A stretch of 32,704 bases of DNA from an uncultured Thermoplasmata archaeon (GTDB taxonomy: Archaea > Thermoplasmatota > Thermoplasmata > Halarchaeoplasmatales > Halarchaeoplasmataceae). The first letter of the stretch is position 1; each line of letters starts with the position of its first letter. The notes under the pieces were generated by a model that saw only the letters and a program-made list of their open reading frames with translations, did not search any database and was not told the origin of the DNA. Position numbers and translations under genes: made by a program. Where the stretch lies: NCBI GenBank assembly GCA_964399335.1, contig CAYNQI010000006.1, positions 1-32,704 of the forward strand, given 5' to 3'. Shown piece by piece: positions 13,585-32,704 of the stretch.

Positions 13585-13654
13585 ATACTTGGACTCCTCC
13601 GATATTATCTTGTAGCGCCGTTAAACGCTAATCTGTCCCTTGCCCTAAACTGTT

Positions 13655-15169: not shown

Positions 15170-15979
15170 CTATTCTAAATATTCACTGATATCATGATGG
15201 AAATCATTATCGATCTTTTCAAATACCATCTTTAACTTTTTGTTCTTTGGTGTACCTTTATTAAACTCTTCAAGATCCCAATTAATATAGGACCAATAAT
15301 CAGAATGTCGAGGTGGTGAAAAGGTCTTTTCCACAACAGCAACATCGAAGAGATTACAGTATTTACCTCTTGGTCGTTTGGTAGTTAAAGAAAGAGGGCG
15401 AAGATTAAACTCGATCACAAAAAGATCTATTAGATAGGCTGATATACTAAATCTTTCAGAAACATCGCTACCCTGACACCGTAGTATGGTCCTATTGTTT
15501 TTATTTTTCAATGATCTATATACTAATGATTTAACTGCAGAAGGAGTAATAAGAGTACTTAAATCACCTTTGTATTTGATACCTTGTCCTTCTTTTTCGG
15601 GAACTTTTAAACGCTCTATATCGCCTTTAGGTTTAGGATTTTCTTCATCGAATAACCTTAAGGATTCTTTGATATCAAAAAGGGAAACTTTGTTTTGTTT
15701 TAAAAGTTCTTTATGTACAACTACAGAATGATGTGTTGCAGCTTCTCTTCCAAGTTCATCCTCAGTAAAACCAAGTCTTGTCATCAATAAAAAAGGGGAT
15801 TTAGATCTGTTAAAAAACATGAAGGCCTCTTTATCCTGATAACCTAAGGATACGGGGATATATTCTTTGAACCATGGTTTGAAGTGTACAGGATTGACTT
15901 TTTCGGTAGCTGCAGAAGCATCTTCTTCATAACCAGCACCTTCAACGGGGAACCAAACGAAATGGTCTAGGGCTATCAT
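15170..15979 (-). CDS. Hypothetical protein (269 aa), first gene 3' of tRNA-Thr
   Basis: Long ORF co-oriented with the GTPase cluster. No recognisable motif. Confidence 0.55.
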   Translation of the reverse strand: MIALDHFVWFPVEGAGYEEDASAATEKVNPVHFKPWFKEYIPVSLGYQDKEAFMFFNRSKSPFLLMTRLGFTEDELGREAATHHSVVVHKELLKQNKVSLFDIKESLRLFDEENPKPKGDIERLKVPEKEGQGIKYKGDLSTLITPSAVKSLVYRSLKNKNNRTILRCQGSDVSERFSISAYLIDLFVIEFNLRPLSLTTKRPRGKYCNLFDVAVVEKTFSPPRHSDYWSYINWDLEEFNKGTPKNKKLKMVFEKIDNDFHHDISEYLE

Positions 15980-15995
15980 TTTCTACCTCTCTAAT

Positions 15996-17012
15996 TTAAA
16001 GCATCTTCCTTCCTTCACGTTTGAAATACTCCTCTAATTTCTCATTCGGATCAGAATAATCTTTACTCAAATCTCCTAAATGAGAGATAAATTTTTGGAA
16101 GTGTTTATATGGATATATATTCGATGTAAGTTCCTCATCTTCTACATTAACCCATTTCACACCGAGTTCTTGGTCTGCTGGTTTTACTCCGTTTTCACCA
16201 TCTACACCTGCCCAGCTGAAGAAGTACATTGCTTTATGTAGGTCAACACCTACAACTTTAGAACCTACTATGTTTTGATAAAGACCGGGAAGAAATGTTT
16301 TCAAAAGTTTCTCTCCATCTTCCCTTACTTCAACCTCATCATATCCTTTTTGTATATCTAATAGATCCCTCATACTATGGTTGGGGAACATATCGATTAT
16401 TTCTGGATCCATCATGTCCATTTTAGTGAAGAAAACTATCGGGTGTAATTCTTCAGATGTTTTATTAGCTTTATACTCCTCATAGCGTGATAAAATTTGA
16501 GACATCTCAGCATCATACCTTCGCATTGTAGTGCCTTTTTCACTCCTGATATCCTTTGTTAATTTAGAGCAATCAACTAGAATAACCATTATATTGCTGT
16601 TGAAAACTTCTTTGATCTTTTTTGTAACAGATTTATGATTACCAAATTCTTCGATCTCCTCACCTGACACATCGAATACAGTGAACATCAATTTATTCTC
16701 ATAATTAAATGCATTTTTAAGTCCACTTAAACCCTTTTCTGCTTTAATATGTTTAAAAACATCACTTTTTGTTGCCTCAAAATTCATCAAAAAACTCAAA
16801 GCTTGAAAATCTCCTCTAGCAGTTGCCCTTGGAAATTCACCAGCATGTAATCTATTTCGTATTTTATTGAGACAAACATCAGTCGTTTCAGGATCCATAT
16901 AATAAGCGAATTTTTTAGGATTCTTGATCGTATATTTTTCCATCGATTGATGTAAAAACCCAACTAACGTTGATTTTCCACAACCTCTGGTTCCTATTAT
17001 AGATACAGGCAT
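15996..17012 (-). CDS. P-loop GTPase-like protein (338 aa)
   Basis: N-terminal Walker A GTRGCGKST, a hhhhDxxG motif (FTVFDVSGEE), a Walker-B-like IMVILVDCS, and a TKMD G4-like motif (FFTKMD, compare NKxD/HKxD). Confidence 0.7.
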   Translation of the reverse strand: MPVSIIGTRGCGKSTLVGFLHQSMEKYTIKNPKKFAYYMDPETTDVCLNKIRNRLHAGEFPRATARGDFQALSFLMNFEATKSDVFKHIKAEKGLSGLKNAFNYENKLMFTVFDVSGEEIEEFGNHKSVTKKIKEVFNSNIMVILVDCSKLTKDIRSEKGTTMRRYDAEMSQILSRYEEYKANKTSEELHPIVFFTKMDMMDPEIIDMFPNHSMRDLLDIQKGYDEVEVREDGEKLLKTFLPGLYQNIVGSKVVGVDLHKAMYFFSWAGVDGENGVKPADQELGVKWVNVEDEELTSNIYPYKHFQKFISHLGDLSKDYSDPNEKLEEYFKREGRKML

Positions 17013-17081
17013 TTTCGTTCACCGAGCTGTAAACGTATTTTAATTATATATCATTTATGGTTATATCTCCATCAGAAAAGA

Positions 17082-17960
17082 TTATTTCCGAATCTCAGAA
17101 AGTATTTCTTTCTGAGTTTTTGATGTTTTTATTTTATTACCGATATAAGATATCATATCTATATATTGAAAATAGGGATAGATCAATACGTTTGGGTGAA
17201 GATCAAAAGGTTCAAATCCATCGGGTTTAGGATGTATTCTATGATGTTTATTGCTGACTATGGTATAGGTACTAAAAAAATAATTTGCCCCCGCCGTATT
17301 TTTTTTATTTATCAAATTCCAAGTTTTTGGAAGATTATTCTTCATTAAGATCATACCGGCCTTTCTTTTAACCTCTTCTTGGGAATCCTCTTTAGTAAAT
17401 ATTTTAAATATCAACTTTTTACCTTTATCTATTGGTAGATTTAAGACTATGAACATATAATTTTTAGAATTGGATCTTTGCTTAAAATATTCATTTAGTA
17501 ATATTGAAAGGTTTTTATCATAAAAACTATCAACCTTTGTAATATCTATAATAACCCCTAGTATCTCATCTTCTACGATCCTATCAAATCTTTCTGGTAA
17601 ACCGATTTTACCGAAATCATGCTGGCCAAAATTTATAATTCTAATCGAGGTTCTCTTCATGTCGTTATCTTTTGATTTATCTTTTTTTAATGCACTTCCT
17701 AAGTTTCTCATAAATTTATTTAACCCATTATACGGAAACCCAGCAATTAAACAGATTTCATCACCTTTGCTTAATCTTCTTTTAGTTTTAGAACCTAATC
17801 TATTCTCTTTTATGTGAAGTAATCTGAGGCTTTTAGAAGGTATATAAAAAGAGAAACCACTATTCTCATCTCTTACACTATATCTCTCCATAGATTTATG
17901 TAGGAGAACAGAAAACTCGTCGAACATTTTTTTCCTTAATGTGATTATAGACACGCCCAT
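17082..17960 (-). CDS. Degenerate paralogue of the upstream GTPase (pseudo-GTPase, P-loop lost)
   Basis: The N-terminus MGVSIITLRKKMFDEFSVLLHKSMERY aligns with MPVSIIGTRGCGKSTLVGFLHQSMEKY of the neighbour, but GKST is replaced. The later segments VIIDITKV and FIVLNLPID are also collinear. Confidence 0.6.
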   Translation of the reverse strand: MGVSIITLRKKMFDEFSVLLHKSMERYSVRDENSGFSFYIPSKSLRLLHIKENRLGSKTKRRLSKGDEICLIAGFPYNGLNKFMRNLGSALKKDKSKDNDMKRTSIRIINFGQHDFGKIGLPERFDRIVEDEILGVIIDITKVDSFYDKNLSILLNEYFKQRSNSKNYMFIVLNLPIDKGKKLIFKIFTKEDSQEEVKRKAGMILMKNNLPKTWNLINKKNTAGANYFFSTYTIVSNKHHRIHPKPDGFEPFDLHPNVLIYPYFQYIDMISYIGNKIKTSKTQKEILSEIRK

Positions 17961-17974
17961 AATATCATCTTTTT

Positions 17975-19480
17975 CTAAATAGTATAAATATCTCGTTCAT
18001 CTTTCTCTTCGACTTCAACCCTTTCCCCTATTTCTCCGAATAATTTATCTTTGTATTCTTTAAAGAACATATGAGGATGAGTACTCTTAGATATTCCTAC
18101 TTTCTCTTCTTCTAGTAAAATCCCGATTCCATAAAGACAGCCCAATATTGGAGAAGATGTGTGGATCTTTAGGACCTTAAAGTCTCCATTTGTATCAAGA
18201 TTGTTAAAATATTTTGCCTCCTCTATCTCCGAGAAGTTTTTGTTCCAATACTCCATATAATAAATAAAATTCTTTCTCCATTCAGGATCCGTCTGGAGGT
18301 AATCTACGATATCGTCTTCAAGACTTTGATCGTATTTAATTTCGTTCCGTATCTTTGTAAATAACTTTTTATTCCTTCTATTTTCTTTTATTATCTTAGC
18401 CCAGCCATCCTTTGAATCGAGTTCAAAAGTAGTATCTTTTTCCGCTTTATCTTCCATTACCTTTTCATCTGTATTTGAAGATTCCTCAGTTGATAAATTT
18501 TCAAAAGTTTGAACTTCTTGTTTCGGTCTTTTTTCCATAATGACCTGGTTTTCTTCTAATTCTTCTATCATATCTCTAAGCTCGTCTACAGAATTAGGAT
18601 CGTTTAGACGATGTTCAATCTCCACTGTATCTAACGTTCGACCTTGATATTCTAATAATGAATATTTTTTTCTGAGAAATATTAATTCTTTAATGTTTTC
18701 CTCGTATTCACTAAATAATTCTTCACCTTTATCAAGATCATCTTTAAGTGTATTGATTAATTTGTCTACCTGAAAACCTTCATCTCTCCAGTCTTTTGCT
18801 TTCATTAAAAGTTTCTTTTTCTTTTTCCTCCTTTTAATCTCCTTTTTAAGCTTTCTAACGATTCTTGAGGCCTTCTCTACCGAATCTGGATCGTTCAAGT
18901 ATTCTTCAATATTATCACTAAAAGCCATGTTGTATTTATCAAGAGGTAAAGATTGATATCTTTTTTTTACAATTTTTAATCTTTCAATTCTCTTATTATA
19001 TTCATCGATAAGGTCCTCACCTTTAGAGGGATTATTTTTTATCTTAGCTTTTAATCCAGAAACATCCCACCCTTCTTCTTCTAACTCTTTTAATTTGCTA
19101 AATAATTTCTTTAATCTCTTTTTTTTATCGATCTTCATTTTTAGTTTGTTGACTATCCTCGAGGCTTTTTTTACCGAATCAGGGTCATTCAGATATTCTT
19201 CGATATTTTCACTAAAAGCCAAATCGAATTCATTCAATTTTAAAGAATTATATCTCTTTTTAATAATCTTTAATCTTTTAATCCTTTTCTTATATTCCCT
19301 TATAAAGTCCTCACCTTTAGAAGGGTCATCCTCTATCTTATTTTTTAAACCAGAAACATCCCAACCATCGTTTTCCCAGTCTTTAATTATATCCAATAGT
19401 TTATTTATAGATTCTTCTCTTTTTCTTTCCTTTTCTCTATCCTCGGATATCTTATCTATGATTGGTTTTTTTTCTGACAT
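17975..19480 (-). CDS. Basic/acidic coiled-coil protein with three tandem ~85-aa repeats (EGWDVSGLK.KI...PSKGE..I.EY..RI.RLKI.KKRY.SL.L....AFS.NIEEYLNDPDSV.KASRIV.KLK)
   Basis: The repeats are visible at both protein and DNA level (~18.57-19.39 kb). No known domain recognised. Confidence 0.65.
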   Translation of the reverse strand: MSEKKPIIDKISEDREKERKREESINKLLDIIKDWENDGWDVSGLKNKIEDDPSKGEDFIREYKKRIKRLKIIKKRYNSLKLNEFDLAFSENIEEYLNDPDSVKKASRIVNKLKMKIDKKKRLKKLFSKLKELEEEGWDVSGLKAKIKNNPSKGEDLIDEYNKRIERLKIVKKRYQSLPLDKYNMAFSDNIEEYLNDPDSVEKASRIVRKLKKEIKRRKKKKKLLMKAKDWRDEGFQVDKLINTLKDDLDKGEELFSEYEENIKELIFLRKKYSLLEYQGRTLDTVEIEHRLNDPNSVDELRDMIEELEENQVIMEKRPKQEVQTFENLSTEESSNTDEKVMEDKAEKDTTFELDSKDGWAKIIKENRRNKKLFTKIRNEIKYDQSLEDDIVDYLQTDPEWRKNFIYYMEYWNKNFSEIEEAKYFNNLDTNGDFKVLKIHTSSPILGCLYGIGILLEEEKVGISKSTHPHMFFKEYKDKLFGEIGERVEVEEKDERDIYTI

Positions 19481-19646: not shown

Positions 19647-20984
19647 ATGGCTAAAAGATGGAGAGATATAAAAAACGATAGTGATGACGTAGTTGCTAGG
19701 TTTTTAGAGCCAAATGACGTAAAAGGTATTACGAGTCAAGATATTATAATAGGTCCTAACGAAGCCGCTGTTATAATCGAACAAGGTAAAATAGAAGACG
19801 TTATTACTCAATCTAAACAAAAGAATTTTGGGACCAGTTTGTTAAAGCGTTTTGAAAATATAATTTTTGGATCTAAAGATTCGAGAATGCTATTTGTTGA
19901 TACGAGTCCTATTGATGTGACCGGGAAAATCAATAATATAGCAACAAAGGACAACGTTAGGCAGGATGGAATCTGTATGTTAAGATTCCAACTAGATGTT
20001 AACAACGCACATAAATTATTAAATCTGATTAAAAATAAAGACAAACTTACGATCAACAATATACGGGAAAAGATAAGCGATGAGATTACAGCCAATGTGT
20101 TTTCACCTTATATACACAAATATAACGTTGACGAATTTAAAGGGAATACTGATGTACAGGATGACATCGAAGAAGCAGCAATGGTAGAGATGAGAAAAAC
20201 TTTCGATATGTGGGGTTTGAATTTAATAAATCTTTCAACGAAATGGCATATCAGTAAACACGAGAAAGTTGAAAGGCAAGTTAAAGATGCTGAATTGGAT
20301 GAGAGAAAAAAGGATATAAGAACTGAAAAAGCTAAAGGGAAGATAAATAGGGAATACGATGTAAAATCCCATCTAGAACAAGAGCAGTATAACCAAAGAG
20401 ATCAACATATGGAACATAAACAGGATTTGGAATGGAAAAACATTAAATTTGAAAGAGATAAGCAAAAAACAGGAGTTGACCATCAAGAAGAGATCAAAAC
20501 TAGAAAGAAAAAAGGAGAGATCACTAGAGAAGAGATGGAATGGGAGATGGACAAAAAAGAGATGGAAAGAGCCTTGGACTGGAAGGATCGAATGAATAAA
20601 CAGAAAATGGAAAAAGAAGAACATGAAACAAAATTGGAGATAAATAAGTTTCAAGAAACTGAGTTAAAGGAGAAAGAAGTGGAAGCGGACGTTAAAAAAA
20701 CAAAAGCTCAGGTAGAGGCTGAGAAAGCAAAGCATAATTTAGAAACATATAAAGAAGCCGAAGACAGAGAAAGAAAACATCAATTAAACATGACTGGTCA
20801 GATGGCAAATTTGATGAATGCATCTAAACAGGATATGCCTAATACACTCGTTCAGGGAACTGATAAGACATCTACGAACATCCAAGACAATCAAAACCCT
20901 GGAAAAAAAGATTCGTGCCCAAATTGTGGATCAAATGTAGATAAAAATTGGCAGCATTGTCCAGACTGTGGAGAAGAAATATAG
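19647..20984 (+). CDS. Flotillin-like protein: SPFH/band-7 domain, long E/K-rich coiled coil, C-terminal Cys4 zinc ribbon
   Basis: SPFH-like N-terminal ~200 aa (IIIGPNEAAVIIEQGKI..., ATKDNVRQDGICMLRFQL, WGLNLINLS). Residues ~200-400 are a charged heptad-rich segment. Ends CPNCG...CPDCG. Confidence 0.65.
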   Translation: MAKRWRDIKNDSDDVVARFLEPNDVKGITSQDIIIGPNEAAVIIEQGKIEDVITQSKQKNFGTSLLKRFENIIFGSKDSRMLFVDTSPIDVTGKINNIATKDNVRQDGICMLRFQLDVNNAHKLLNLIKNKDKLTINNIREKISDEITANVFSPYIHKYNVDEFKGNTDVQDDIEEAAMVEMRKTFDMWGLNLINLSTKWHISKHEKVERQVKDAELDERKKDIRTEKAKGKINREYDVKSHLEQEQYNQRDQHMEHKQDLEWKNIKFERDKQKTGVDHQEEIKTRKKKGEITREEMEWEMDKKEMERALDWKDRMNKQKMEKEEHETKLEINKFQETELKEKEVEADVKKTKAQVEAEKAKHNLETYKEAEDRERKHQLNMTGQMANLMNASKQDMPNTLVQGTDKTSTNIQDNQNPGKKDSCPNCGSNVDKNWQHCPDCGEEI

Positions 20985-22179: not shown

Positions 22180-22953
22180 CTAGATGTTTAAAACTTTCTT
22201 TGCATTTTTGTAGAATACTTTCTTTATAGTCTCTTCGCTCCTCCACTCCACATCCATCCTATGTAATGTTTTTTTGACTCCTCCATAAGGTGTATCACTA
22301 CCGAACATCATCTTGTCATCTTCAACCATCAATGATAGTACCTCAACTCGATGTTTTTTATTAATTGATAAATCCATATATATATTATCCTGTTCATTAG
22401 CCATCTTTATGGCATCGCTCTGTTCGGTGATACCAGCATGCGCTAATATGATAGGTATGTTTGTAAATGATGGTAGAATATCTTTTAATTGATCAATATA
22501 TTTTCCTTCTTTATGGGCAGAATGTATCAATATAGGTAGATTCAATTCTGTAGCCTTTTCATATATAAAATCGATCTCGTCACACTCGAAATCCTGCGCG
22601 TAAGGGTGAAGTTTTAAACCTTTCATATCTAAGTCTATTGCCCTTTCCATCTCTTTTTCCCAAGCTGGATGATTTGGATCTATCCTAGAAAACCCGATAA
22701 GTGGATCATATTTTTTTACTAGTCTATGGATAGTGTTATTAGCATCTTTGAAACCATCCTTAGGACCGGTGTTAAATGGAAATATGACAGCTTTCCTGAT
22801 ATTGTATTCTTTCATATCTTTGTATAGCTTGCTGGGATGATTTTTGTCTTCATCATCCTTATCTTTACCTATATGAACATGGACATCTATCTTAGGAACA
22901 TTCCAAATATCTACCGTATCATCTTCTTTAGATTGGTTTTTATCGTCTGTCAT
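22180..22953 (-). CDS. Amidohydrolase-2 (TIM-barrel metal-dependent hydrolase) family protein
   Basis: IDVHVHIG (HxH) at the first strand, with later ILIHSAH and ILAHAG His motifs and a terminal D. Confidence 0.7.
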   Translation of the reverse strand: MTDDKNQSKEDDTVDIWNVPKIDVHVHIGKDKDDEDKNHPSKLYKDMKEYNIRKAVIFPFNTGPKDGFKDANNTIHRLVKKYDPLIGFSRIDPNHPAWEKEMERAIDLDMKGLKLHPYAQDFECDEIDFIYEKATELNLPILIHSAHKEGKYIDQLKDILPSFTNIPIILAHAGITEQSDAIKMANEQDNIYMDLSINKKHRVEVLSLMVEDDKMMFGSDTPYGGVKKTLHRMDVEWRSEETIKKVFYKNAKKVLNI

Positions 22954-22979
22954 GATATCACCGATAAGATTATACTACT

Positions 22980-24176
22980 TTATTCAAATATCCTCCTTAC
23001 CTCTTCCATCTTATACCCACATTCTACACAGCATTTCCATTCACTTTCTACTTTTGTTCCGCAACTTGGACAATATCTTACTCCCCCATCGATCTTCTCG
23101 CCCGTAAAAACACTATAATTTCTAGGGACTTTTAGATTTTTTTCTGCTACCTGTCTAATTATAGAATCATCTATTTTCTTTTTGCCATTACCTATATCAG
23201 ACCTAACAGCAACAGAATTATCCAATTGTGTACTGCCACTTTCTCCTGAACCTCCAATATTAGACCTTAAAGCTACTGAATCTTTAAGTTGGGTAGCCCC
23301 TTCCCCCAATTTTTCTTTCACTTTATCTCCTTTGACCAGATCTCCGTTTACCTTATCACCTTGTATCTGTTCTCCTATCTCTACCTTTGTCTCTCTAAAA
23401 TGGACAGCATCAACCCGTCTATAGTTGGTATTTTTCTGTGCCTTACCTTTTAGAATGTACGTCAATGGTATAGACAGGTTCATGATCTCTTTCCAGTCGT
23501 TAGATGAATCCACTTGATTTATGGTCCATTCGATACATGATCTGATAGGTTCCTCATCATATCCTTCACCTATCAAAAGCAAACTTTCTAAAGCTAAAGC
23601 TGTGACTTTTTCTTTATTTATCCACCCCCTCTCTGTTCGTTCCTTTTTATAATGGTCTTTTTTGATAGAGTTCTTTAAGAAATCAGCTGTTAATGATAAT
23701 TGAGCAGGTTCTGCATAAGAATAAAATAAAGCTTGTAATGCGTAAGAACTCACCCAAACTTTTTCGTACCAGCTTCCATTAGGATACCTTTTCTGTAACA
23801 ATACATCTGCAATATTAGGATAGCTGATACCATACTTACCCAGTGCTTTTATTATCAAAGAATCCAGCCATATCTGGTTTGTCCACCCATTTCTTTTTTT
23901 TTCCTTTTCCAGTATTTTGATATAGTTTTTCATATCGCTCTCAGTATAACCAAGTTCTTTTGCAGATAATAGAAAGTATGAGATCGAGATAGTATCCATA
24001 TCTAACATGAATTTAGCTTCCGTCTTTTTTAATAATTCTTCAGCTATCTCTTCTTCGATACAAGATAAAAGCCGTATACCTGAACTTATGTACCTAATAT
24101 CATTAGATTCGTAAAGGCATGATAAATCAAATGTATTAAAATTCCTCTCTAAGCAATTTACAACTTCTTTTTTCAT
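22980..24176 (-). CDS. Alpha/alpha-toroid (prenyltransferase/terpene-cyclase-like) repeat protein with a G/S-rich duplicated linker and a C-terminal Cys4 zinc ribbon
   Basis: Repeats of the form NGW....D..II.AL..YG, NGSW....VSSYALQALFY and RGW....ALALESLLLIG. Duplicated TQL(K/D).SVA(L/V)RS(N/D)IG segment. Ends CPSCG...CVECG. Confidence 0.55.
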   Translation of the reverse strand: MKKEVVNCLERNFNTFDLSCLYESNDIRYISSGIRLLSCIEEEIAEELLKKTEAKFMLDMDTISISYFLLSAKELGYTESDMKNYIKILEKEKKRNGWTNQIWLDSLIIKALGKYGISYPNIADVLLQKRYPNGSWYEKVWVSSYALQALFYSYAEPAQLSLTADFLKNSIKKDHYKKERTERGWINKEKVTALALESLLLIGEGYDEEPIRSCIEWTINQVDSSNDWKEIMNLSIPLTYILKGKAQKNTNYRRVDAVHFRETKVEIGEQIQGDKVNGDLVKGDKVKEKLGEGATQLKDSVALRSNIGGSGESGSTQLDNSVAVRSDIGNGKKKIDDSIIRQVAEKNLKVPRNYSVFTGEKIDGGVRYCPSCGTKVESEWKCCVECGYKMEEVRRIFE

Positions 24177-26050
24177 TTAACAGCCTCCTCCGATAGAGCT
24201 TTTAGATTTAAAGATAATTTCATAATATCTCTTTTCCTAGACCCAACCTGATTACTTAATTCTCTTTTCAACCATTGAACTACATTATCATTTTTATATC
24301 CTATGCTATTTAAGCAATCATATATGATTGCGGTGGCCTTCACGTTATCGGTTTGTTTACATTCCCAATGGTTTTCTTTCAATAAAATTTTCAGTTGACT
24401 CAATTCTTTACTTGCATCTAAACCAGATATAATTAAACACTCAACAATATATGCTATCACCCATGAGGGAGTAAATTCACTTATCCTATTACGGAGCTTT
24501 TCAGCGAGTTCCTTTTTTTCCAATTCCTCTCCACCCAATTTACTCATAACAGAAAGTGCATAAGCAGATATCCAAAGTTGTTCATCCTCTAATATACCAC
24601 CTCTTAGTTGATCCATAACTTTCTTGGCATTTTGTCTATATATTTCTCTTTCTGTTTCTTCATAGATGAATAAGGTTTCTAATAATAGAAGTGTATGGTA
24701 AAATTTAGACCCAGAATATTTTTTCAAAAGAGTATTTACCAATTCTTCACATCTTATTTTTTCCATCGTTGGATTACATTTCATTAAAGCTAACAACGAA
24801 TTGGCATACTCTTTATAACTTATCGTATAAGATTGCTGGATTGCTTTTTCTAACATTTCATAGGCTTCTTTAATATCCTCATCCCATTCAATCTCTTTTC
24901 TTACTTCTTCTTTTTCAACAAATTTAAATTTAATTTTACTTTCTGGAAGTGGTTTTTTCTCATAATCTTCCATAGTAGCCCCGAAAAGTTCTGATACGTA
25001 TTGATCCTTTTTCTTTGAGAAAAGATGTATCTGCCAATCAGCTAGGTTTCTCTTATGTTTTAAAAATCTTTTCAAAGGTTTGATCTGTTTTTCGTATCCC
25101 ATTTCCTTGATCTCGGGTTTTAACCAGTCAAAAAATGCTTTTATAACCTCTATAGTAGAAGAGTCTGATACATTTTTATAATGAAAGCACCTTTTCATAT
25201 CTCTCTTTATAAAGAAACTAGAAGACATACCATTTTTAATAGCTTTGTTTCTGTTATGACCTATATTTATATTTGGTACCCATTTGACTTTATCCAATTT
25301 TACAGTTAACGTTCGAAACAAAGCTGCATAAGCTACTGTAAGAGGGATATATGGATGGGTATCTAATAAACGTATTTCCAAAGTTGGTTTATATTCATCT
25401 GAGGCCTTACATTTTTGGGTAAAGGGAGATAGGTCGTAATACCTGCTTTTTTTCCTTTTTTCCTCATAAGAGTTTTCATATTCAAAACAAGAAAGATACC
25501 CTCTTTTAATATCTTCTTCGTTAAGGTATGGTGCAGGTTTTATGTTTGGATTTACCCTTTTTGAAGGATCATAAGTATCCATACTGGCCCTAACAGACTT
25601 CCATTTCGTGATATGATTGTCATGGATCGGTGAATTAGAACTTAAAGCAAATATTTCTGGAACAAAGATTCTGAGAAAATTATTGAGTCTCAATTTTCTC
25701 TTATCAGAATTTGCATCGATATGATGCTGTTCTGCAAAATATTCTCCAACTCTACCCTTAGTATGAGGGTTCGCAGCTGTTCCAATTAAGAATAGGTCAC
25801 ACTCACGGGCTGCTTCGTTTACAACTTCTCTCAGTTCTATCAGTTGTTCCTCAAGTTCTTCTAAAGTTTCACAGGTATCAGTAGCTATTTCCAGTTGGGA
25901 CTGGTATTTATCTTTATATATACCACCTTTTCCAAATTCATAATATTTATCTGGTACTTTATCTAATATCTTTGGGACTTCGTAAACCAGGTGCCCATTT
26001 TCATTTACTACTTGTATTTCCTGCTCAACACCGTGTTTCAAATCTATCAC
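24173..26050 (-). CDS. GCS2/YbdK-type carboxylate-amine ligase fused to C-terminal alpha/alpha-toroid repeats (625 aa)
   Basis: N-terminal ~370 aa carry the glutamate-cysteine-ligase-family-2 pattern (HGVEQEIQVV..., EIATDTCETLEE..., FLIGTAANPHT). The C-terminal ~250 aa carry repeats such as QLWISAYALSVMSKLGG. A 4-nt ATGA overlap joins it to the downstream gene. Confidence 0.6.
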   Translation of the reverse strand: MIDLKHGVEQEIQVVNENGHLVYEVPKILDKVPDKYYEFGKGGIYKDKYQSQLEIATDTCETLEELEEQLIELREVVNEAARECDLFLIGTAANPHTKGRVGEYFAEQHHIDANSDKRKLRLNNFLRIFVPEIFALSSNSPIHDNHITKWKSVRASMDTYDPSKRVNPNIKPAPYLNEEDIKRGYLSCFEYENSYEEKRKKSRYYDLSPFTQKCKASDEYKPTLEIRLLDTHPYIPLTVAYAALFRTLTVKLDKVKWVPNINIGHNRNKAIKNGMSSSFFIKRDMKRCFHYKNVSDSSTIEVIKAFFDWLKPEIKEMGYEKQIKPLKRFLKHKRNLADWQIHLFSKKKDQYVSELFGATMEDYEKKPLPESKIKFKFVEKEEVRKEIEWDEDIKEAYEMLEKAIQQSYTISYKEYANSLLALMKCNPTMEKIRCEELVNTLLKKYSGSKFYHTLLLLETLFIYEETEREIYRQNAKKVMDQLRGGILEDEQLWISAYALSVMSKLGGEELEKKELAEKLRNRISEFTPSWVIAYIVECLIISGLDASKELSQLKILLKENHWECKQTDNVKATAIIYDCLNSIGYKNDNVVQWLKRELSNQVGSRKRDIMKLSLNLKALSEEAVK

Positions 26051-26606: not shown

Positions 26607-27389
26607 CTAGAAGGGTTTCTCGTAGTCCTCGTAGATGACATCCTGCCGTAAGTTATTCAATTCCTCTTCAATTTCCGCCTTTTTCTGAGTTATACTTTCA
26701 GAAGCATCTTTGTATGTTTCTAAATCAATTTTTTCATCTGCAAGTTGTTCAGCAAGTGAAGTCTTTTTATCATCTAAGCTTTTTATTTCTTCTAAAGATT
26801 CGTTGTACACTTCATATTTGTTTTTTAGCTCGTTTAATAGATTTTCAGCCTTATCAATATCCATATTTTTAATTGCATCAATTATAGGTCTTTTATCTAT
26901 CATACTTTCCCTTTCTTCTAATGAAGATACTTCACCTTCTATCTTCTCTATTTTATCTGTGATCTTATTTCTTTCTTTGATTAGAGAGTTTGCCTCTTCA
27001 AAATTTCTGTTATCGATCATCCTCTCAATATCACTCGTTTTCATATACCTAGTAGACTCTTTTAATTCGTCTAATTTACTATCTAATTTGACTAATTTTT
27101 CAGCAATCGATAGACCTGCAAAAGTAGATGATTTTGGTTTAGACAATTTTTGAGGCTTTTTAGGGATAGGTCTTTTTTTATCAGTTGCCTCAAAACCCTC
27201 TTTTCTTTGTTTAACTAGTTCATTAGCACGCCCATATAATCCCTCCTTTAATGCCTCTTCGATATCACTTACGTCTTTTCCTTCTCTTTTCAATTGAGAT
27301 AACTGTTCTTCTAAAGATTTAATCCATGGGATAAATCCTCCCCGGATATTGATAAGCTGCTCAGCAGTAGTGTAATCTCCACTCATCAT
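26607..27389 (-). CDS. Paralogue P1 of the 'YEDYxKPF-tail' family: soluble coiled-coil N-terminus plus the conserved C-terminal module (MID.R motif duplicated)
   Basis: C-terminal ~105 aa are collinear with P2-P5: ...MIDKRPI...LAEQLADEKIDLETY...LRQDVIYEDYEKPF. Confidence 0.7.
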   Translation of the reverse strand: MMSGDYTTAEQLINIRGGFIPWIKSLEEQLSQLKREGKDVSDIEEALKEGLYGRANELVKQRKEGFEATDKKRPIPKKPQKLSKPKSSTFAGLSIAEKLVKLDSKLDELKESTRYMKTSDIERMIDNRNFEEANSLIKERNKITDKIEKIEGEVSSLEERESMIDKRPIIDAIKNMDIDKAENLLNELKNKYEVYNESLEEIKSLDDKKTSLAEQLADEKIDLETYKDASESITQKKAEIEEELNNLRQDVIYEDYEKPF

Positions 27390-27599
27390 ATATCGTTCTA
27401 TATCTTTTGTTTTTATATAAGGAACTTCACGTTTAATTTTGTTGAGTTTTTTTTCAATATTTATGCTAGATTCATCTGCTATATTATCACCAGTTAATTT
27501 CGCACTCTTAATCGAATAATTAGTTTATAAACATTCCTATTTTGTTAAATGGAGTTTTAATTTGATTCTTTTAGGTCCGTCTAAATCCAAACCTTAATA

Positions 27600-27932
27600 T
27601 TGTTAGACAAACATCACAGTTTGATGAACTTGATATCATTGATAGTAATTTTGTATCTTCTTATGATAAATTTTTCTTCATTTTTGTTGTTCGGGATAGA
27701 TAAGTATAAAGCAAAAAATAATAAAAGAAGAATATCCGAGAAAAATCTTTTTTTCCTGTCTTTTATAGGTGGCATTTTTGGATCTCTATTAGGTATGAAA
27801 ACATACAGACATAAAACTAAGAAATTGAGCTTCAATACTGCTATCTTTTTCTTGTTAATATGGAACTTTTTCATATACCTAATCATAATAGACCAGTTAT
27901 TTTATGAGATAATCAAGTTCATACCTATTTAA
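27600..27932 (+). CDS. DUF1294-family small membrane protein
   Basis: FGIDKYKAKNNKRRISEKNL...GGIFGSLLGMKTYRHKTKK.SF matches the DUF1294 DK.A...RI.E..L..GG..G...HKT.K pattern. In bacteria this domain is often fused to a cold-shock domain. Confidence 0.6.
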   Translation: MLDKHHSLMNLISLIVILYLLMINFSSFLLFGIDKYKAKNNKRRISEKNLFFLSFIGGIFGSLLGMKTYRHKTKKLSFNTAIFFLLIWNFFIYLIIIDQLFYEIIKFIPI

Positions 27933-28043
27933 GATGAGAGAGAACCTTGAGATTTTTTTGGTAAAATATTACATCATCTTTAAGTTCTAAAGAAAAATTC
28001 ATTTCACTTAAGCTTCTGAGGAGGTAAAATATTACATTCAACT

Positions 28044-29123
28044 TCAAAACGGTTTCTGGTAATCTTCATAGATGACCTCATGTCTTAGTTTGTTCAACCT
28101 CTCTTCTAGATCAGCCTTCTTGTGCTCTATACTTTGGACGGCGTCATAGTATGTGTTTTTATCTATTTCATAATCAGCTAACTTTTGAGCTAAAGAGCTT
28201 TTCTTATCATCTAGCGTTTCCAATTCCACTATCGTTTCTTTGTATTCCCGATACTTTTCTTCCAAACCTGATAAAAGTTCTCCAGCCTTCTTTACATCAC
28301 CTTCATCTAAAGCTGAATCGATACCTCTTGTATCTATCATACGTTCATCTTCCTTGAGTTGAGAGATCGTCTTTTTTATATCACTCAAGGAATTATATGC
28401 TTTCCTATCTTTACTAATTTCTTCAATTGTTTTACTTTTTTTCTGAGCAGTTTTTACTTTTTTACTTCGTCTGACCCATACAGTCTTATCTATAGATTTT
28501 TCGAATCCTACCTGATTTTGGTAAATTATTTTCAGATCGAGAGATGAGTTTTCTCTTGTTGTTTTTCCTTTCATATACACCTTATTAACCCTATTTTCTC
28601 CAGCTTTCAATATATCTATTGCTGAATCTTGTCGGATCTCTGTCCCTCCTTCAGATCGAATACGGATATTGAATGCATCGTGGTTTCCTAAATTGGAGAT
28701 GATTATGTCTTCCCTTGTCCACTTCTCCGGACGGAGTTCTATATTTTCAACTTCAACTTCTAAATCTGGGAAGGCCCTCCATATCCTTTCCCTATCTTTT
28801 AAAGTTCTAAATATCTGCTCCGTATTTTTGTCTCTTGCAGAATGCCCAAGACCTTTTCCTCTAAATATGATTATACTCTTTTTTGTTTTTATCTCGATAT
28901 ATTTGGGGTTCATCCATATATCAAATAAGTTCATTTCGATATGTTCTATCTCTGAAGGATGAATTCTTATATTTTGTTTCTTTCCATGATATCTTATCTC
29001 GTGTCCGATTATCAATGTTCCCTTATCTGGTACCGGGGATCCCCATCCTTCTAGGCCCTCTTTTTCTTTTTGGGTATAAAAACGAACACTTTCAAACCGA
29101 GATTCATTTAATTTACTCTTCAT
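28044..29123 (-). CDS. Paralogue P2: soluble N-terminus (possible bacterial-PH-like fold) plus the conserved C-terminal module
   Basis: ...ERMIDTRGID...LAQKLADYEIDKNTY...LRHEVIYEDYQKPF. Its last 34 nt, stop codon included, are identical to P3. Confidence 0.7.
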   Translation of the reverse strand: MKSKLNESRFESVRFYTQKEKEGLEGWGSPVPDKGTLIIGHEIRYHGKKQNIRIHPSEIEHIEMNLFDIWMNPKYIEIKTKKSIIIFRGKGLGHSARDKNTEQIFRTLKDRERIWRAFPDLEVEVENIELRPEKWTREDIIISNLGNHDAFNIRIRSEGGTEIRQDSAIDILKAGENRVNKVYMKGKTTRENSSLDLKIIYQNQVGFEKSIDKTVWVRRSKKVKTAQKKSKTIEEISKDRKAYNSLSDIKKTISQLKEDERMIDTRGIDSALDEGDVKKAGELLSGLEEKYREYKETIVELETLDDKKSSLAQKLADYEIDKNTYYDAVQSIEHKKADLEERLNKLRHEVIYEDYQKPF

Positions 29124-29398
29124 TTTTTTTGGTCCATTTTCTTGTCTTTGGAATTAGAGATATATATTTATAATTTTATCTTCAACCTAAAACCCTTCTA
29201 CCAATCTTAGTAAATGACTTTCTGTCGTGATCTTTCGAGTCTGTTTTTTTAGCTAATTTCTCCACGCTTTTTTTTGCGGAACCCCTCGTTACGATTTCTA
29301 ATCCTCTCGAATGTCTATCAATTCCGATCCTATCGGTTCTGAAAACAATTACATAGTCTGATGTTGGCGTAATTTTCTAATATCCCTGTCAAAGTTTG

Positions 29399-30532
29399 TC
29401 AAAACGGTTTCTGGTAATCTTCATAGATGACCTCTTTGCGAAGCCTGTTTAATTCTTCCTCAAGATCTGACTTTCTCCATCTTACACTCTCACTAGCATC
29501 ACTATAAGTTTTTCTATCGATCTCACCGTCAGCTAATTTCTCGGCCAATCTACTCTTTCTATCATCTAATTTACCTAACTGTTTTAATGTATCCTTATAC
29601 TTTTCATAGTTTTCTTTGAGATCATTAAAAAGTTCCTCCGCTTCCTCTACTTTATTTTCTTCTAGGAGAGTTTCTATTTCTCGGGTATCGATCATTTTTT
29701 CTTCTTCTTTTAAAAAATCGATCTCTTTATTTAATCTCTCTTTTTTCTCGCTTATACTTTCTTTAAAGCTTTCTTTTGATAAAGGTGGTGGCATCGGCTG
29801 GTTATCTTTACTTGAAGTTCTTTGATCCTCTTCTGATCTTGTTGGAAATGGTTGGTCATAAGAGTTAGGTTTTGATGGTTGTTGTTGCCATCGTGCTCGC
29901 TGTCTATCATATCCATATTGCATTCTCTCTGGCATTGATTTAGTTGTATATATTGTTCCAAAAGCTACTAAATTTAATATCCCAGCGGCTATGGACATGA
30001 ACCAAGAATATGTTCCACCCCATGACAAATGAAAATTAGAACCATAAATATCCTCATTACTCGATCCGAAGAAGCTTTCATGGGGACCAGATTCGGAACT
30101 GTAAAATTCCTCTTCATTCCAAGCATCAGGTAGTGAAACCATCATATAGACAGGCGCTATCAAAGCAATAATGAAACCGATTAGTACAAGTACAGCACCG
30201 ACTTTTGGAGACAATTTCCCTGTAGCTACAATAAATGCCCCTACACTTCCAAGAGCAGTAAAGAAAATGGAGATCATTACGAATATTTTAGACATATTTA
30301 ATACGTCTGCGGGTTCAAAATCCTCTGGATATTCATCTCTCTCAGTATCTGTACCGTCATAATCCTCCGATGAAATTTCCATCTCATCAAAATATAAATC
30401 AAGGCTAGTAGCTCTATCATCATCTTCTGGTTCAATACTGTAATTATACCAAGGTAGTAAGAAAGTAAATGAAAGGAGTACTAATGCAACAATTGTTAAT
30501 CCTAATCCAGCAACTACTTTCTTTTTTACCAT
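29399..30532 (-). CDS. Paralogue P3: N-terminal signal/TM region, D/E-rich segment, three further TM helices, P-rich linker, then the conserved C-terminal module
   Basis: ...EKMIDTREIE...LAEKLADGEIDRKTY...LRKEVIYEDYQKPF. Confidence 0.7.
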   Translation of the reverse strand: MVKKKVVAGLGLTIVALVLLSFTFLLPWYNYSIEPEDDDRATSLDLYFDEMEISSEDYDGTDTERDEYPEDFEPADVLNMSKIFVMISIFFTALGSVGAFIVATGKLSPKVGAVLVLIGFIIALIAPVYMMVSLPDAWNEEEFYSSESGPHESFFGSSNEDIYGSNFHLSWGGTYSWFMSIAAGILNLVAFGTIYTTKSMPERMQYGYDRQRARWQQQPSKPNSYDQPFPTRSEEDQRTSSKDNQPMPPPLSKESFKESISEKKERLNKEIDFLKEEEKMIDTREIETLLEENKVEEAEELFNDLKENYEKYKDTLKQLGKLDDRKSRLAEKLADGEIDRKTYSDASESVRWRKSDLEEELNRLRKEVIYEDYQKPF

Positions 30533-30639
30533 AATATCGATTCAAGTTCATTAGAAAATAATAAAAGAAATATATATCACTTATGAACAGATGAAAGATT
30601 TGAGTCTTTTATATACCTTAAATATTATGGTTAACTTTT

Positions 30640-30950
30640 GTGAGAGTTTGAGAGAGCTGTAAGTCCTCTTCTTTTAGTGAGTGGATATACGGACTCTCTC
30701 AAAAAGGAAAACCTCATCTGCTACTTTCGTAAAATTCTGGTGTCGGGATGTCGGAAAGCTCCCAGTTCCCCAATCTGATGGAGAGCGTTAGGACAGGAGA
30801 GGATGAACAACTCTCCTGAATGAATAAAGCCTCTTCTGACATCAGGAGTACCGTGACCGTACTCGAAGTCGCTATTGACGACCTAACCTCTGGATACTAC
30901 CCGTAGAGAGACAAGTTAGCGAGGTGGATGAGGAGGTCACTAGTCTCTGT
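30640..30950. ncRNA. Candidate structured RNA of unknown class: a ~310-nt GC-rich (~48% against ~30% background) island packed with perfect hairpins. Strand undetermined
   Basis: Hairpins include CAGGAGAG-9nt-CUCUCCUG (30793-30817), GAGUAC-7nt-GUACUC, and AGAGAC-31nt-GUCUCU. CUGAUG (30772-30777) pairs with CAUCAG (30838-30843) to enclose a sub-domain, and a GAGAG/CUCUC helix sits at the 5' end. There is no ORF. Confidence 0.35.
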
Positions 30951-32018
30951 CTAGAATGGTTTTGCATAATCTTCATGAATCACCTTGTTGCGAAGATCAC
31001 TTAATTTTTCTTCTATTTTTGCTTTTCTATATTCAATACTTTCACTGGCATCTCGATACGTTTCTCTGTCTATTTCACCATCAGCTAATTTTTCAGCTAG
31101 TGTAGTTTTTCTTTTATCTAGAGATCTTATCATATCCAATGTTTCTTGATATTCTGAGAAATCTTTTTTCAATGAAGATAGTTCCTCATTGATTTTTACA
31201 AAATCCTCTTCAGATATTGCTTTCTCTATCTCTCTAATATCTATCATCGGTTCTTCTTCTTTAAGATCTTCAATCTCTATTTTTGCCTCTGCGATTGTTG
31301 ATATTTCAAGTTCAGAGTCCTCATCCCTATTTTCATCTTCCTCTTCTTTTTCATTCTCCTTTTGTTCCTCTTCCTGGACTTGATTATCTTCTTCTAGATG
31401 GTAGTCTTCGGGGATATAAGGGAGAGATGGAGATTCTTGTTTGTTAAAAGGATAGTTTTCCTCTTCGTCCTCTTGATCTGATGTGGGAACAGATTCAAAA
31501 TCATCTGTAGATGTTTCTATTTCCTCAATAGTTCTTCCACCTATTAGAACTATAACAATACCAACAATAACAAGCCAATAACCCATATTCGCCTGGAATA
31601 CAAAAAAAGGTAATTCATATGCATCAACTAGTATAATGAACCAATAACCTTCAAAAATCAAAAGTACAGCTAGAGTTATATACCCATATTTCAAAACTTT
31701 ACTTTTACTCTCTGCAGAAGAAAATAACAAGATCAATACCGCTGCAATAGGGATGATGAAGACTATACTTAAAGATCCACCTACAATGTGATAACCATCA
31801 ATAGCTAGATTTAATCCGGATAAAGAAGAAAACCAATTCAAAAAGAAAGATAGGATCATAATTATACTTCCAACAATCGATAACGCTGCACCTACAGATA
31901 GACTTTCCCTTGGCTTGATAAATCCTAGGTTTTTCTTTTCTCTCTCCTTTTTTAAAGATGTTATTTCAATAACTGCTTTTACAATAATTATAACTGCGAT
32001 TATAAGCGTGAAGAACAA
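30951..32018 (-). CDS. Paralogue P4: five-TM N-terminal domain, long acidic linker, then the conserved C-terminal module
   Basis: ...EPMIDIREIE...LAEKLADGEIDRETY...LRNKVIHEDYAKPF. Confidence 0.7.
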   Translation of the reverse strand: MFFTLIIAVIIIVKAVIEITSLKKEREKKNLGFIKPRESLSVGAALSIVGSIIMILSFFLNWFSSLSGLNLAIDGYHIVGGSLSIVFIIPIAAVLILLFSSAESKSKVLKYGYITLAVLLIFEGYWFIILVDAYELPFFVFQANMGYWLVIVGIVIVLIGGRTIEEIETSTDDFESVPTSDQEDEEENYPFNKQESPSLPYIPEDYHLEEDNQVQEEEQKENEKEEEDENRDEDSELEISTIAEAKIEIEDLKEEEPMIDIREIEKAISEEDFVKINEELSSLKKDFSEYQETLDMIRSLDKRKTTLAEKLADGEIDRETYRDASESIEYRKAKIEEKLSDLRNKVIHEDYAKPF

Positions 32019-32158
32019 ACATACATTTTTAGGTATAATATTATTTCCTCCGCATGCACTATACCTAATATATATTAACTATATATAATTTATTTTTCCA
32101 CTCACCATTTCTATGTTTTCTTCGGGCCTTTTATTAAGATATCGTTAAAATACATTGT

Positions 32159-32704
32159 TTAAAAAGGTTTTTCATAATCCTCGTAGACCACCTTATTTCG
32201 AAGTTTGCTTAGTTTTTCTTCTAACTCTGCTTTCCTATGTGTAATACTTTGATTTGCATCATTATAAGTATCCCGGTCTATTTTTCCATCAGCCAATTGT
32301 TCCGCTAATGAATATCTTCTTTGATCTAACTTTTTCAATGTATCTAAAACTTCTGTATACTCTTCATAGTTCTCTTGGAGTTCAAACAGATGATCTTCAG
32401 CTCTTTCTATTTTCCCCTCCTCTAGAGCTTGATCTATTTTCCTTGTATCTATCATCTTTTCATCCTTCTTTAAAGAATCGATGCCTTTCTCTATCTTTTT
32501 GATCTTTTTTAGATGATCATTATTCTCTTGTGATAAATTTCTAGAACCCTCTAATAATTTATCATTAGATCCCATGTTTCTATTTGTAGTATTTTGAAAT
32601 CTTTCTAGTTGTTTGTTTCCATCGAATTTAGTCTCTGAATCTTCTACACTCTTTTGAAACCTTTCTGAATAAGGTGCTGGTGGGGGAGGTGGTTTCTGTT
32701 GATA
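32159..32704 (-). CDS. Paralogue P5, partial: the ORF stays open to the window edge, the N-terminus lies beyond 32704, and there is a Pro-rich linker
   Basis: ...EKMIDTRKID...LAEQLADGKIDRDTY...LRNKVVYEDYEKPF. The reading frame continues without a stop past the annotated Met at 32575 (...YQQKPPPPAPYSERF...). Confidence 0.65.
   Translation of the reverse strand, partial: YQQKPPPPPAPYSERFQKSVEDSETKFDGNKQLERFQNTTNRNMGSNDKLLEGSRNLSQENNDHLKKIKKIEKGIDSLKKDEKMIDTRKIDQALEEGKIERAEDHLFELQENYEEYTEVLDTLKKLDQRRYSLAEQLADGKIDRDTYNDANQSITHRKAELEEKLSKLRNKVVYEDYEKPF

Follow-up and report, generated by a model that had tools for sequence, protein, structure and literature searches.

A SHOCT-like C-terminal module with a conserved KPF tail, encoded in tandem arrays beside an enzyme cassette in Thermoplasmatota

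SHOCT domains are short, mostly C-terminal modules of unknown function that are promiscuously fused to other domains, and for which oligomerization has been proposed without experimental support (PMC3581485). SHOCT-like domains have in turn been proposed to anchor disparate domains at the inner leaflet of the membrane, as partners of PspA and Snf7 (PMC11237479). We analyzed a 32,704-nucleotide (nt) stretch of DNA from an uncultured Thermoplasmata archaeon (contig CAYNQI010000006.1), here called the window, in which the region 26607-32704 holds an array of co-oriented genes, all on the minus strand, whose products have unrelated N-termini and end in a common SHOCT-like module of ~110 amino acids (aa) with the terminal residues K-P-F. 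A preliminary description of the sequence had recognized five such genes with a shared C-terminal module, the fifth running off the window; this was confirmed and extended, and its interpretation of the array was supported in part. The tail of the module, its tandem arrays and the enzyme cassette that accompanies it are features without a described counterpart in SHOCT-like modules, and the repeated proximity of the family to one enzyme trio suggests an undescribed system that reads or modifies the tail.

The shared module and its tail

The family genes within the window are the following:

26607..27389, minus strand: P1, 260 aa, soluble; the module is its last ~110 aa (26607-26939)
28044..29123, minus strand: P2, 359 aa, soluble; module at 28044-28376
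29399..30532, minus strand: P3, 377 aa, multi-pass membrane protein; module at 29399-29731
30951..32018, minus strand: P4, 355 aa, protein with five transmembrane (TM) segments; module at 30951-31283
32159..32704, minus strand: P5, open at the window end; module at 32159-32491

The last ~110 residues of P1-P5 align without gaps at 50-58% identity, and the alignment, extended by a sixth, foreign sequence, has 25 invariant columns. Pairwise BLASTP comparison of the paralogs' modules, with SEG and composition-based statistics and scaled to a database of 1e9 residues, gave E-values of 8e-30 to 2.5e-22, and each alignment reached the last residue. When the module was removed, no pair of N-termini among P1-P5 was matched by BLASTP at E < 0.01. 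Because these E-values are corrected for composition and the N-termini are unrelated, the similarity of the modules is not that of a low-complexity coiled coil; the preliminary description had allowed for a collapse of the alignment on this ground, which did not occur. Nucleotide identity between the paralogs' modules was 0.56-0.65 and third-position identity 0.38-0.54, and the paralogs are therefore old. The identical run at the ends of P2 and P3 measures 33 nt (36 nt when the stop codon is counted), compared to 9-14 nt in the other nine pairs. The identity of these two gene ends had been noted before (as 34 nt) and ascribed to recent duplication or gene conversion: a short conversion tract over the tail codons is plausible, whereas recent duplication is ruled out by the third-position identity.

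An AlphaFold2 model of the module, predicted from the six-sequence alignment, has a mean predicted local distance difference test (pLDDT) score of 89. From its N-terminus it has two short helices (residues 2-10 and 17-24), one long helix (28-67) and, beyond a tight turn, a return helix (73-101), and its last four residues (107-110) score below 50. The module thus begins with a short helix carrying h-x-D-h-[RK] (MIDTR in the window), followed by a ~40-residue helix, a SHOCT-like turn L-A-x-x-L-A-d-G-E-I-d, a return helix of ~30 residues and an unstructured tail. The MIDxR helix unit, comprising the module's first ~40 residues, is sometimes repeated upstream. This is the case in P1, where the preliminary description had seen a coiled coil with a duplicated MID.R motif and where we found two to three degenerate extra copies of the MIDxR/helix sub-motif. 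The P1 frame is open for 45 codons upstream of its ATG, without a start codon (27390-27524), and the first sub-motif of the module is weakly matched across the annotated start; either a former N-terminal part of P1 may be missing, or its translation may begin at an unusual start codon.

The tail has the consensus [LVI][FI]x[ED][DEK]-Y-[EQ]-K-P-F-COOH in 98 full-length representatives. Tyrosine stands at position -5 in 95 of the 98 and [ED] at -7 in 96; the near-invariance of the terminal K (98/98), P (97/98) and F (96/98) is in part a product of how the sequences were chosen, namely by a terminal [KR][PT][FYV]. As an independent check we collected 4,996 six-frame open reading frames (ORFs) from the window and 39 loci (numbered with an L below), in which 83 of the 85 ORFs ending in KPF were family members; among these ORFs the KPF tail is confined to the module. 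Two tail clades can be distinguished, V-I-Y-E-D-Y-x-K-P-F, which includes the window, and L-F-K-D-E-Y-E-K-P-F. The best-conserved segment of the module is hence the one predicted to be disordered, a combination that marks a short linear motif recognized by some partner. Searches of Pfam, NCBIfam and the PDB gave no sequence match to the module other than weak coiled-coil matches, and a literature search for the tail sequence returned nothing relevant, in agreement with the earlier remark that no characterized family carries this tail.

The relation of the module to SHOCT is visible at the level of profiles. An hhalign comparison of 45 modules with 11 SHOCT or SHOCT-like repeats, which had been picked up by the same module profile, scored 95.8% (E 7e-9) over 31 columns centered on L-A-x-x-L-A-D-G-x-I. 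The module profile finds Pfam-called SHOCT proteins at E 2.6e-4 to 3.2e-4 (P0116, Pfam SHOCT 8.6e-15; P0118, 2.9e-11) and DUF1707 SHOCT-like proteins at E 3e-8 to 2e-5. Ten of the 45 modules match Pfam SHOCT below threshold (best E 1.6e-4), none of P1-P5 matches PF09851 at E <= 1, and no member attains the SHOCT gathering score of 27 bits, the best being 20.2 bits (P0037). The SHOCT-type motif of the preliminary description therefore stands as a profile-level resemblance and not as a Pfam assignment, and for its view of SHOCT as an oligomerization motif the defining paper found no support (PMC3581485). Shared with SHOCT, DUF1707 and SHOCT_2 are the bihelical motif L-x-x-L-x-x-G-x-I-x-x-x-x-Y/F, the mostly C-terminal position and the attachment to many unrelated domains, among them two-TM and putative PH-like fronts (PMC3581485, PMC11237479). 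However, SHOCT comprises ~28 aa and ends there, while the module is ~110 aa long and has an extra MIDxR helix, helices of 30-40 residues and the invariant YxKPF-COOH tail, and this family, unlike SHOCT, occurs in tandem arrays with a conserved enzyme cassette as neighbor.

A word-index homolog search gave one match and missed the family, which was found by an exhaustive profile search and is rare: among 1.84 billion representatives, 120 proteins matched at E <= 0.001 and 68 at E <= 1e-10. The match ends at the last residue in nearly all full-length members, and four weak matches are bacterial secreted repeat proteins outside the family. All sources with an organism name are metagenome-assembled genomes (MAGs) of Thermoplasmatota, Thermoplasmata or Thermoplasmatales, not of DPANN archaea, to whose metagenomes the preliminary description had pointed; most of the sequences lie on unclassified metagenome contigs, many from the SL_8KL_010_SED and Ga0207421 samples. 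The module defines a new, unannotated protein family of ~100 known sequence clusters, so far from Thermoplasmatota MAGs and unclassified metagenome contigs. A viral origin was ruled out, as the IMG/VR viral contigs hold no family copies, and so was an anti-phage defense system, as no PADLOC model matched the family or the cassette; PADLOC gave only weak matches of coiled-coil type (LmuB, JetC) for P1 and P3, and none for the cassette.

The ~100 cluster representatives carry multi-TM, Fn3, CARDB, beta-propeller, HEAT, LRR, TPR, ankyrin, CBS and zinc-ribbon fronts. Pfam recognizes PLDc_N-like fronts, InlB-B-repeats (Flg_new_2) with a beta-propeller, CARDB with Ig (Big_7), LRR, TPR, ankyrin, CBS and HEAT_PBS, as well as one front type of four fn3 domains; many other members are multi-pass membrane or zinc-ribbon proteins without a Pfam match. 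The N-terminal parts form ~30 similarity groups, several with orthologs in related genomes, and at least 30 unrelated fronts precede the module. A common C-terminal module on swapped N-terminal domains, as proposed for the array, thus holds for the family at large, but the fronts are different stable domains with orthologs and not, as "hypervariable" had implied, versions of one domain. In the array itself, the N-terminus of P2, for which a PH-like domain had been suggested, has no Pfam match and an ortholog in L016, and an ortholog of the P4-type N-terminus adjoins the ligase gene in L007. P1 and P2 have no hydrophobic segments, P4 has five, and P3 has one plus three to four (residues 2-20, 77-137 and 176-194). 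Contig L005, which is 98-100% identical to the window, completes P5 as a protein of 250 aa (P0002) with a PLDc_N-like two-TM domain, a proline-rich linker and the module. It also carries a sixth paralog of 729 aa (L005 350-2536) just past the window end, so that the array has at least six members where at least five had been counted. The earlier assignments of five TM segments to P4, a signal or TM region plus three TM segments to P3 and a proline-rich character to P5 were roughly right. The sequences of single-pass members show a K/R-rich stretch directly after the membrane helix, leading into the module, which is therefore cytoplasmic in these proteins.

Broken copies of family genes were also observed. 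They comprise a 737-aa gene whose module is broken by a frameshift (L002 4160-6479) and short ORFs that retain only the tail (L003 9989-10138 and 11075-11173, L004 9980-10072, L014 191-373, L020 2249-2377 and L024 9977-10144), and they suggest ongoing gain and decay of family members.

The ligase, zinc-ribbon and hydrolase cassette

Downstream of P1 lie three further minus-strand genes, which together form the cassette (22180-26050):

24173..26050, minus strand: GCS2-type carboxylate-amine ligase, 625 aa, directly downstream of P1
22980..24176, minus strand: alpha/alpha-repeat zinc-ribbon protein, 398 aa, with NGSW motifs, a GD-rich beta segment and a C-terminal zinc ribbon
22180..22953, minus strand: Amidohydro_2 metal-dependent hydrolase, 257 aa, with its HxH motif present

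The start of the 398-aa gene overlaps the ligase stop by 4 nt. The preliminary description had given a DUF1294 gene and a GC-rich element as the context of the array and had not seen this cassette, which is the strongest clue and our main new finding.

The ligase matches Pfam GCS2 (PF04107) at 57.4 bits against a cut-off of 21, and YbdK-type models cover its residues 7-352; the YbdK-like catalytic domain spans about residues 1-355, with 1R8G as the nearest solved structure. Its characteristic Glu, His and Arg columns, which we take to be catalytic on the basis of the fold, are nearly invariant in 21 homologs. It differs from YbdK/GCS2 enzymes in ~270 extra C-terminal residues, in NCBIfam scores that are far under the equivalog cut-offs, and in its fixed partnership with the zinc-ribbon protein, the Amidohydro_2 hydrolase and the tail family. 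The C-terminal 235 aa are predicted to form an alpha/alpha toroid (pLDDT 87), whose best structural matches are the thioester domains of C3 (C3d) and alpha-2-macroglobulin (Foldseek E 3e-3, TM-score 0.55-0.59); this match, made with a predicted model, assigns the domain to a fold class that is common among binding domains and goes no further. Homologs of the long ligase are rare (22 clusters), and the long GCS2 form constitutes a new, unannotated subfamily.

The link between cassette and family was examined in reverse, starting from the long-ligase homologs. Family genes adjoin the cassette in all seven independent contexts with readable flanks (window/L005, L007/L022, L027-29, L031, L032/33, L035 and L038/39), in which the cassette occurs in three gene orders. 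L027, a clade-2 locus from a 348-kb contig, has the trio beside family genes in another order, with each protein 42% identical to that of the window. The cassette linkage is thus tight and resistant to rearrangement. L034 was excluded from the seven contexts, as its contig starts 142 bp upstream of the ligase and so lacks the flank that would hold an array in the window-type order. One dedicated family member that always stands beside the ligase was ruled out, since the gene next to the ligase is P1 in the window but P4-like in L007 and of yet another type in L035. An outgroup GCS2 protein (468 aa, 29% identity; L036 2679-6708 and L037 793-4822) has Amidohydro_2 and VWA genes nearby and no family gene. 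GCS2 and Amidohydro_2 may form an older two-enzyme unit that was adopted by different systems. In L031 a SAMP2/ThiS-type ubiquitin-like gene (13434-13640) lies ~550 nt downstream of the cassette, a single occurrence. A family member and a cassette of the long-GCS2 type are encoded on short contigs of two NCBI assemblies from one accession series, L001 (GCA_905333765.1) and L035 (GCA_905333365.1); these contigs may be archaeal DNA within assemblies of a different organism.

Possible roles of the tail and rival explanations

SPFH genes have been reported to be contextual partners of archaeal ESCRT, and the ESCRT set of Thermoplasmata has been described as minimal and lacking adaptors (PMC11188069). 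Two genes of the window are of interest in this respect:

19647..20984, plus strand: SPFH/Band-7 protein, 445 aa, with a coiled coil and a zinc ribbon; found again near the cassette or family genes in L031 and L018
21645..22154, plus strand: 169-aa protein; a look-alike (L031 2310-2759) lies directly upstream of the L031 SPFH gene, the likeness having been judged by eye, without an alignment statistic

Family genes in L027-29, and independently those in the unrelated contig L030, are directly followed by a Snf7-like gene of 184-190 aa and a gene for a single-AAA ATPase; between the L027 and L030 contigs the Snf7-like proteins are 61% and the ATPases 54% identical. The ATPase is matched from end to end by the NCBIfam CdvC model (E 1e-65, below its cut-off) and has a sub-threshold, full-length MIT match (E 9.6e-4), and the 184-aa protein has a weak Snf7 match (positions 5-156 of 171, E 0.14). 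No such ESCRT-III/Vps4 pair was found in the 32.7-kb window or in loci other than L027-29 and L030.

We propose that a single shared partner would recognize the tail as a short linear motif presented by the rigid hairpin. The best candidate for this partner would be the three-gene cassette, with its ligase carrying a putative toroid binding domain, its zinc-ribbon protein and its hydrolase. The ligase could write an amide on the tail, using the free Phe carboxylate, the conserved Glu/Asp or, as amine, the invariant Lys, and the Amidohydro_2 hydrolase could erase it. In this way, many different scaffold and membrane proteins would be marked or docked at the inner membrane face, together with ESCRT-III/Vps4 and SPFH proteins in some genomes. 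The parts of this proposal differ in strength. The module is very probably a portable SHOCT-like handle with a functional tail motif. Taken whole, the idea that the cassette reads or modifies the tail of a cytoplasmic handle is a serious possibility that falls a little short of being probable, and the specific claim that the cassette is the tail's partner, which genomic adjacency points to, is to be held more tentatively still. Covalent modification of the tail is doubtful, and a full tail-modification cycle that picks membrane receptors and scaffolds for ESCRT-III/Vps4 and SPFH, with the ligase guided by its toroid and its zinc-ribbon partner, would be rather improbable. The preliminary description had suggested alternative adaptors that recruit a shared partner through the KPF tail; this fits a tail that is both disordered and most conserved, and the partner itself is one we infer.

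Ligase-handled tails are known from Pup with PafA/Dop, LysW with LysX, tubulin with TTL and S6 with RimK, and PafA and Dop have a glutamine-synthetase/GCS fold. The family resembles these in having a flexible acidic/aromatic C-terminal tail beside genes for an ATP-dependent amide ligase and a hydrolase. In contrast, their tails end in Glu, Gln or Gly-Gly with known chemistry, whereas the tail of the family ends in K-P-F and belongs to ~100 large multidomain proteins rather than to one small tag or carrier. The tail matches none of the motifs GG, GGQ/E or EDWGE. Several observations weigh against a role of the cassette at the tail. The link is guilt by association, from which binding and modification are inferred, and the seven contexts come from related lineages, so that inherited synteny could give part of the signal. 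On the DNA at hand, many of the family genes are not accompanied by a cassette (L002, L006, L008, L009, L011 and L016), and in L034 no family gene lies within 6 kb downstream of the cassette. Moreover, GCS2 enzymes with known substrates act on small molecules, and the product of the cassette could be a metabolite that has nothing to do with the tail. Finally, the tail ends in Phe, unlike Pup (GGQ/E), LysW (EDWGE) and S6 (EE).

The ESCRT-type neighbors allow for a different explanation, in which the hairpin would be CdvA- or steadiness-box-like, or its last helix and tail would act as an MIT-interacting motif (MIM), and the family would bring membrane proteins and scaffolds to ESCRT-III/Vps4 as an analog of ESCRT-0/I, with the cassette as an accessory. 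The Snf7-like and ATPase genes and the recurrent SPFH neighbor, a gene type linked to archaeal ESCRT (PMC11188069), speak for it. So do eight of the 45 modules, which match Pfam CdvA (PF18822) below threshold (best E 4.2e-4). Like the ESCRT-I steadiness box and CdvA, which belong to modular proteins connecting cargo or membrane with ESCRT-III, the module is a terminal helical hairpin of comparable size, and ESCRT-I proteins were the top Foldseek matches of the hairpin, at E >= 0.1. However, there is no significant sequence match, the structural likeness is no better than to hundreds of unrelated hairpins, the family has neither PRC-barrel nor UEV domains, and the tail has no counterpart. The last amphipathic helix of the module (D-L-E-E-x-L-x-x-L-R) resembles the MIM1 consensus [DE]xxLxxRLxxL[KR] (PMC12057046), but it sits in a packed hairpin and is followed by twelve further residues. 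The module was ruled out as a MIM1, as the strict consensus is present in 1 of 98 sequences and the key Arg in 6 of 94 (Lys in 39, Glu in 25), and a PDB search with the tail peptide returned no ESCRT-III peptides. As the ESCRT-III/Vps4 pair is limited to two contexts and is absent from the window, and the invariance of K-P-F-COOH is left unexplained, we consider this explanation unlikely.

Alternatively, the module could be an elongated, lineage-specific bihelical domain that tethers or clusters proteins at the inner membrane face without a dedicated partner, the arrays having arisen by duplication and domain shuffling and the adjacency of the cassette being inherited synteny. The profile-level similarity to SHOCT, the mostly C-terminal position with many unrelated fusions, as in SHOCT (PMC3581485), the inner-leaflet anchoring and PspA/Snf7 company proposed for SHOCT-like domains (PMC11237479) and the PLDc_N-like two-TM front of P5 speak for this account. 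Yet conservation peaks in a disordered tail that SHOCT lacks and not in the SHOCT-like turn, the module is four times as long as SHOCT, and the cassette adjacency persists over three gene orders at 42% identity and is absent for the outgroup GCS2; we regard this account, too, as doubtful.

That the free aromatic tail serves as a degron for an unfoldase or a tail-specific protease, or directs the proteins to surface display, is suggested by the invariant motif at the extreme C-terminus and by an AAA unfoldase nearby in two contexts, but is very improbable: genes for proteases or secretion do not recur next to family genes, the module of single-pass members lies in the cytoplasm, no membrane helix or basic tail follows the motif, with KPF as the last tripeptide, so that it is not of the PGF-CTERM/archaeosortase type, and a degron common to ~100 proteins with a conserved, structured 100-aa stalk is hard to rationalize. 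The notion of an artefact, with ORFs that are not genes or a merely compositional similarity of charged coiled coils, draws on the richness of the module in E, K and L and its weak matches to many coiled-coil Pfam families, but has next to no probability, and its compositional form is refuted by composition-corrected E-values of 1e-22 to 1e-30, a gap-free register with invariant non-coiled-coil positions (G, P, Y, F) at a fixed C-terminal place, and ~100 homologs in other metagenomes and NCBI MAGs.

Other neighbors and implications for the family

Two further features are embedded in the array:

27600..27932, plus strand: DUF1294 membrane-protein gene, between P1 and P2
30640..30950: GC-rich non-coding stretch, between P4 and P3

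The DUF1294 gene, which the preliminary description had already placed in the array, was confirmed by Pfam (PF06961, 81.1 bits against a cut-off of 25, E 7e-23). A DUF1294 gene also adjoins a family gene in L023, and there was no sign that it is a functional part of the family system. The GC-rich stretch (47% GC compared to 33.5% for the array) has stops in all six frames, matches no Rfam family, even at E <= 1, beyond chance, and has its sole other copy among the 39 loci in the near-identical contig L005. It had been described as a structured element: the stretch exists, and its structure signal is weak, with fold z-scores of -2.1 on the minus strand and -2.9 on the plus strand. The stretch may encode a small RNA not described so far, or may be what is left of a decayed gene.

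The remainder of the window is an ordinary archaeal chromosome, with genes for GGGP synthase, tRNA-intron endonuclease, SRP19, S8e, HisRS and three tRNAs. Among its other genes are a short, 283-aa protein with a tubulin/FtsZ-family GTPase domain (12733-13584) and four minus-strand genes (15170-19480) around a Double-GTPase-2 (DO-GTPase2) protein (15996-17012), which include a 501-aa protein with three W-x-x-[DE]-G-[WF]-[DQ]-V-x-x-L repeats (17975-19480). Homologs of two genes of this group adjoin the family gene and the DUF1294 gene in L023. After the cassette in L027 (7232-7483) and L032 (5241-5486) stand one-TM proteins of 81-83 aa that end in W-K-x-[RE]-G-Y-[NI]-V-x-E-L-[ED]-L, and each of these clade-2 proteins is accompanied by a conserved multi-TM protein of ~195 aa. 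The motif that ends the one-TM proteins also occurs within a 363-aa zinc-ribbon protein (L031 7524-8615) and resembles the repeats of the 501-aa protein of the window. Mutually similar large proteins are encoded beside family genes without a visible cassette in L002 (6794-9430), L011 (1303-4452) and L024 (10173-11891); by eye, the L002 protein reads as a P-loop ATPase followed by TPR repeats.

SHOCT-type domains are widespread and of unknown function, and this lineage-specific derivative offers two experimental handles, an invariant ten-residue free tail and a fixed set of neighboring enzymes. Even the modest reading defines a protein family of ~100 clusters and a long GCS2 subfamily. If the tail is read or modified by the ligase, this would be a new archaeal protein-tail chemistry and would provide the first functional partner for a SHOCT-like module. 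If the ESCRT/SPFH link is true, some Thermoplasmatota, which have been described as having a reduced ESCRT set without cargo adaptors (PMC11188069), would carry a large family of candidate adaptors. A tail-modification cycle, if true, would be a functional analog of ubiquitin/ESCRT-0-I cargo selection built from unrelated parts.

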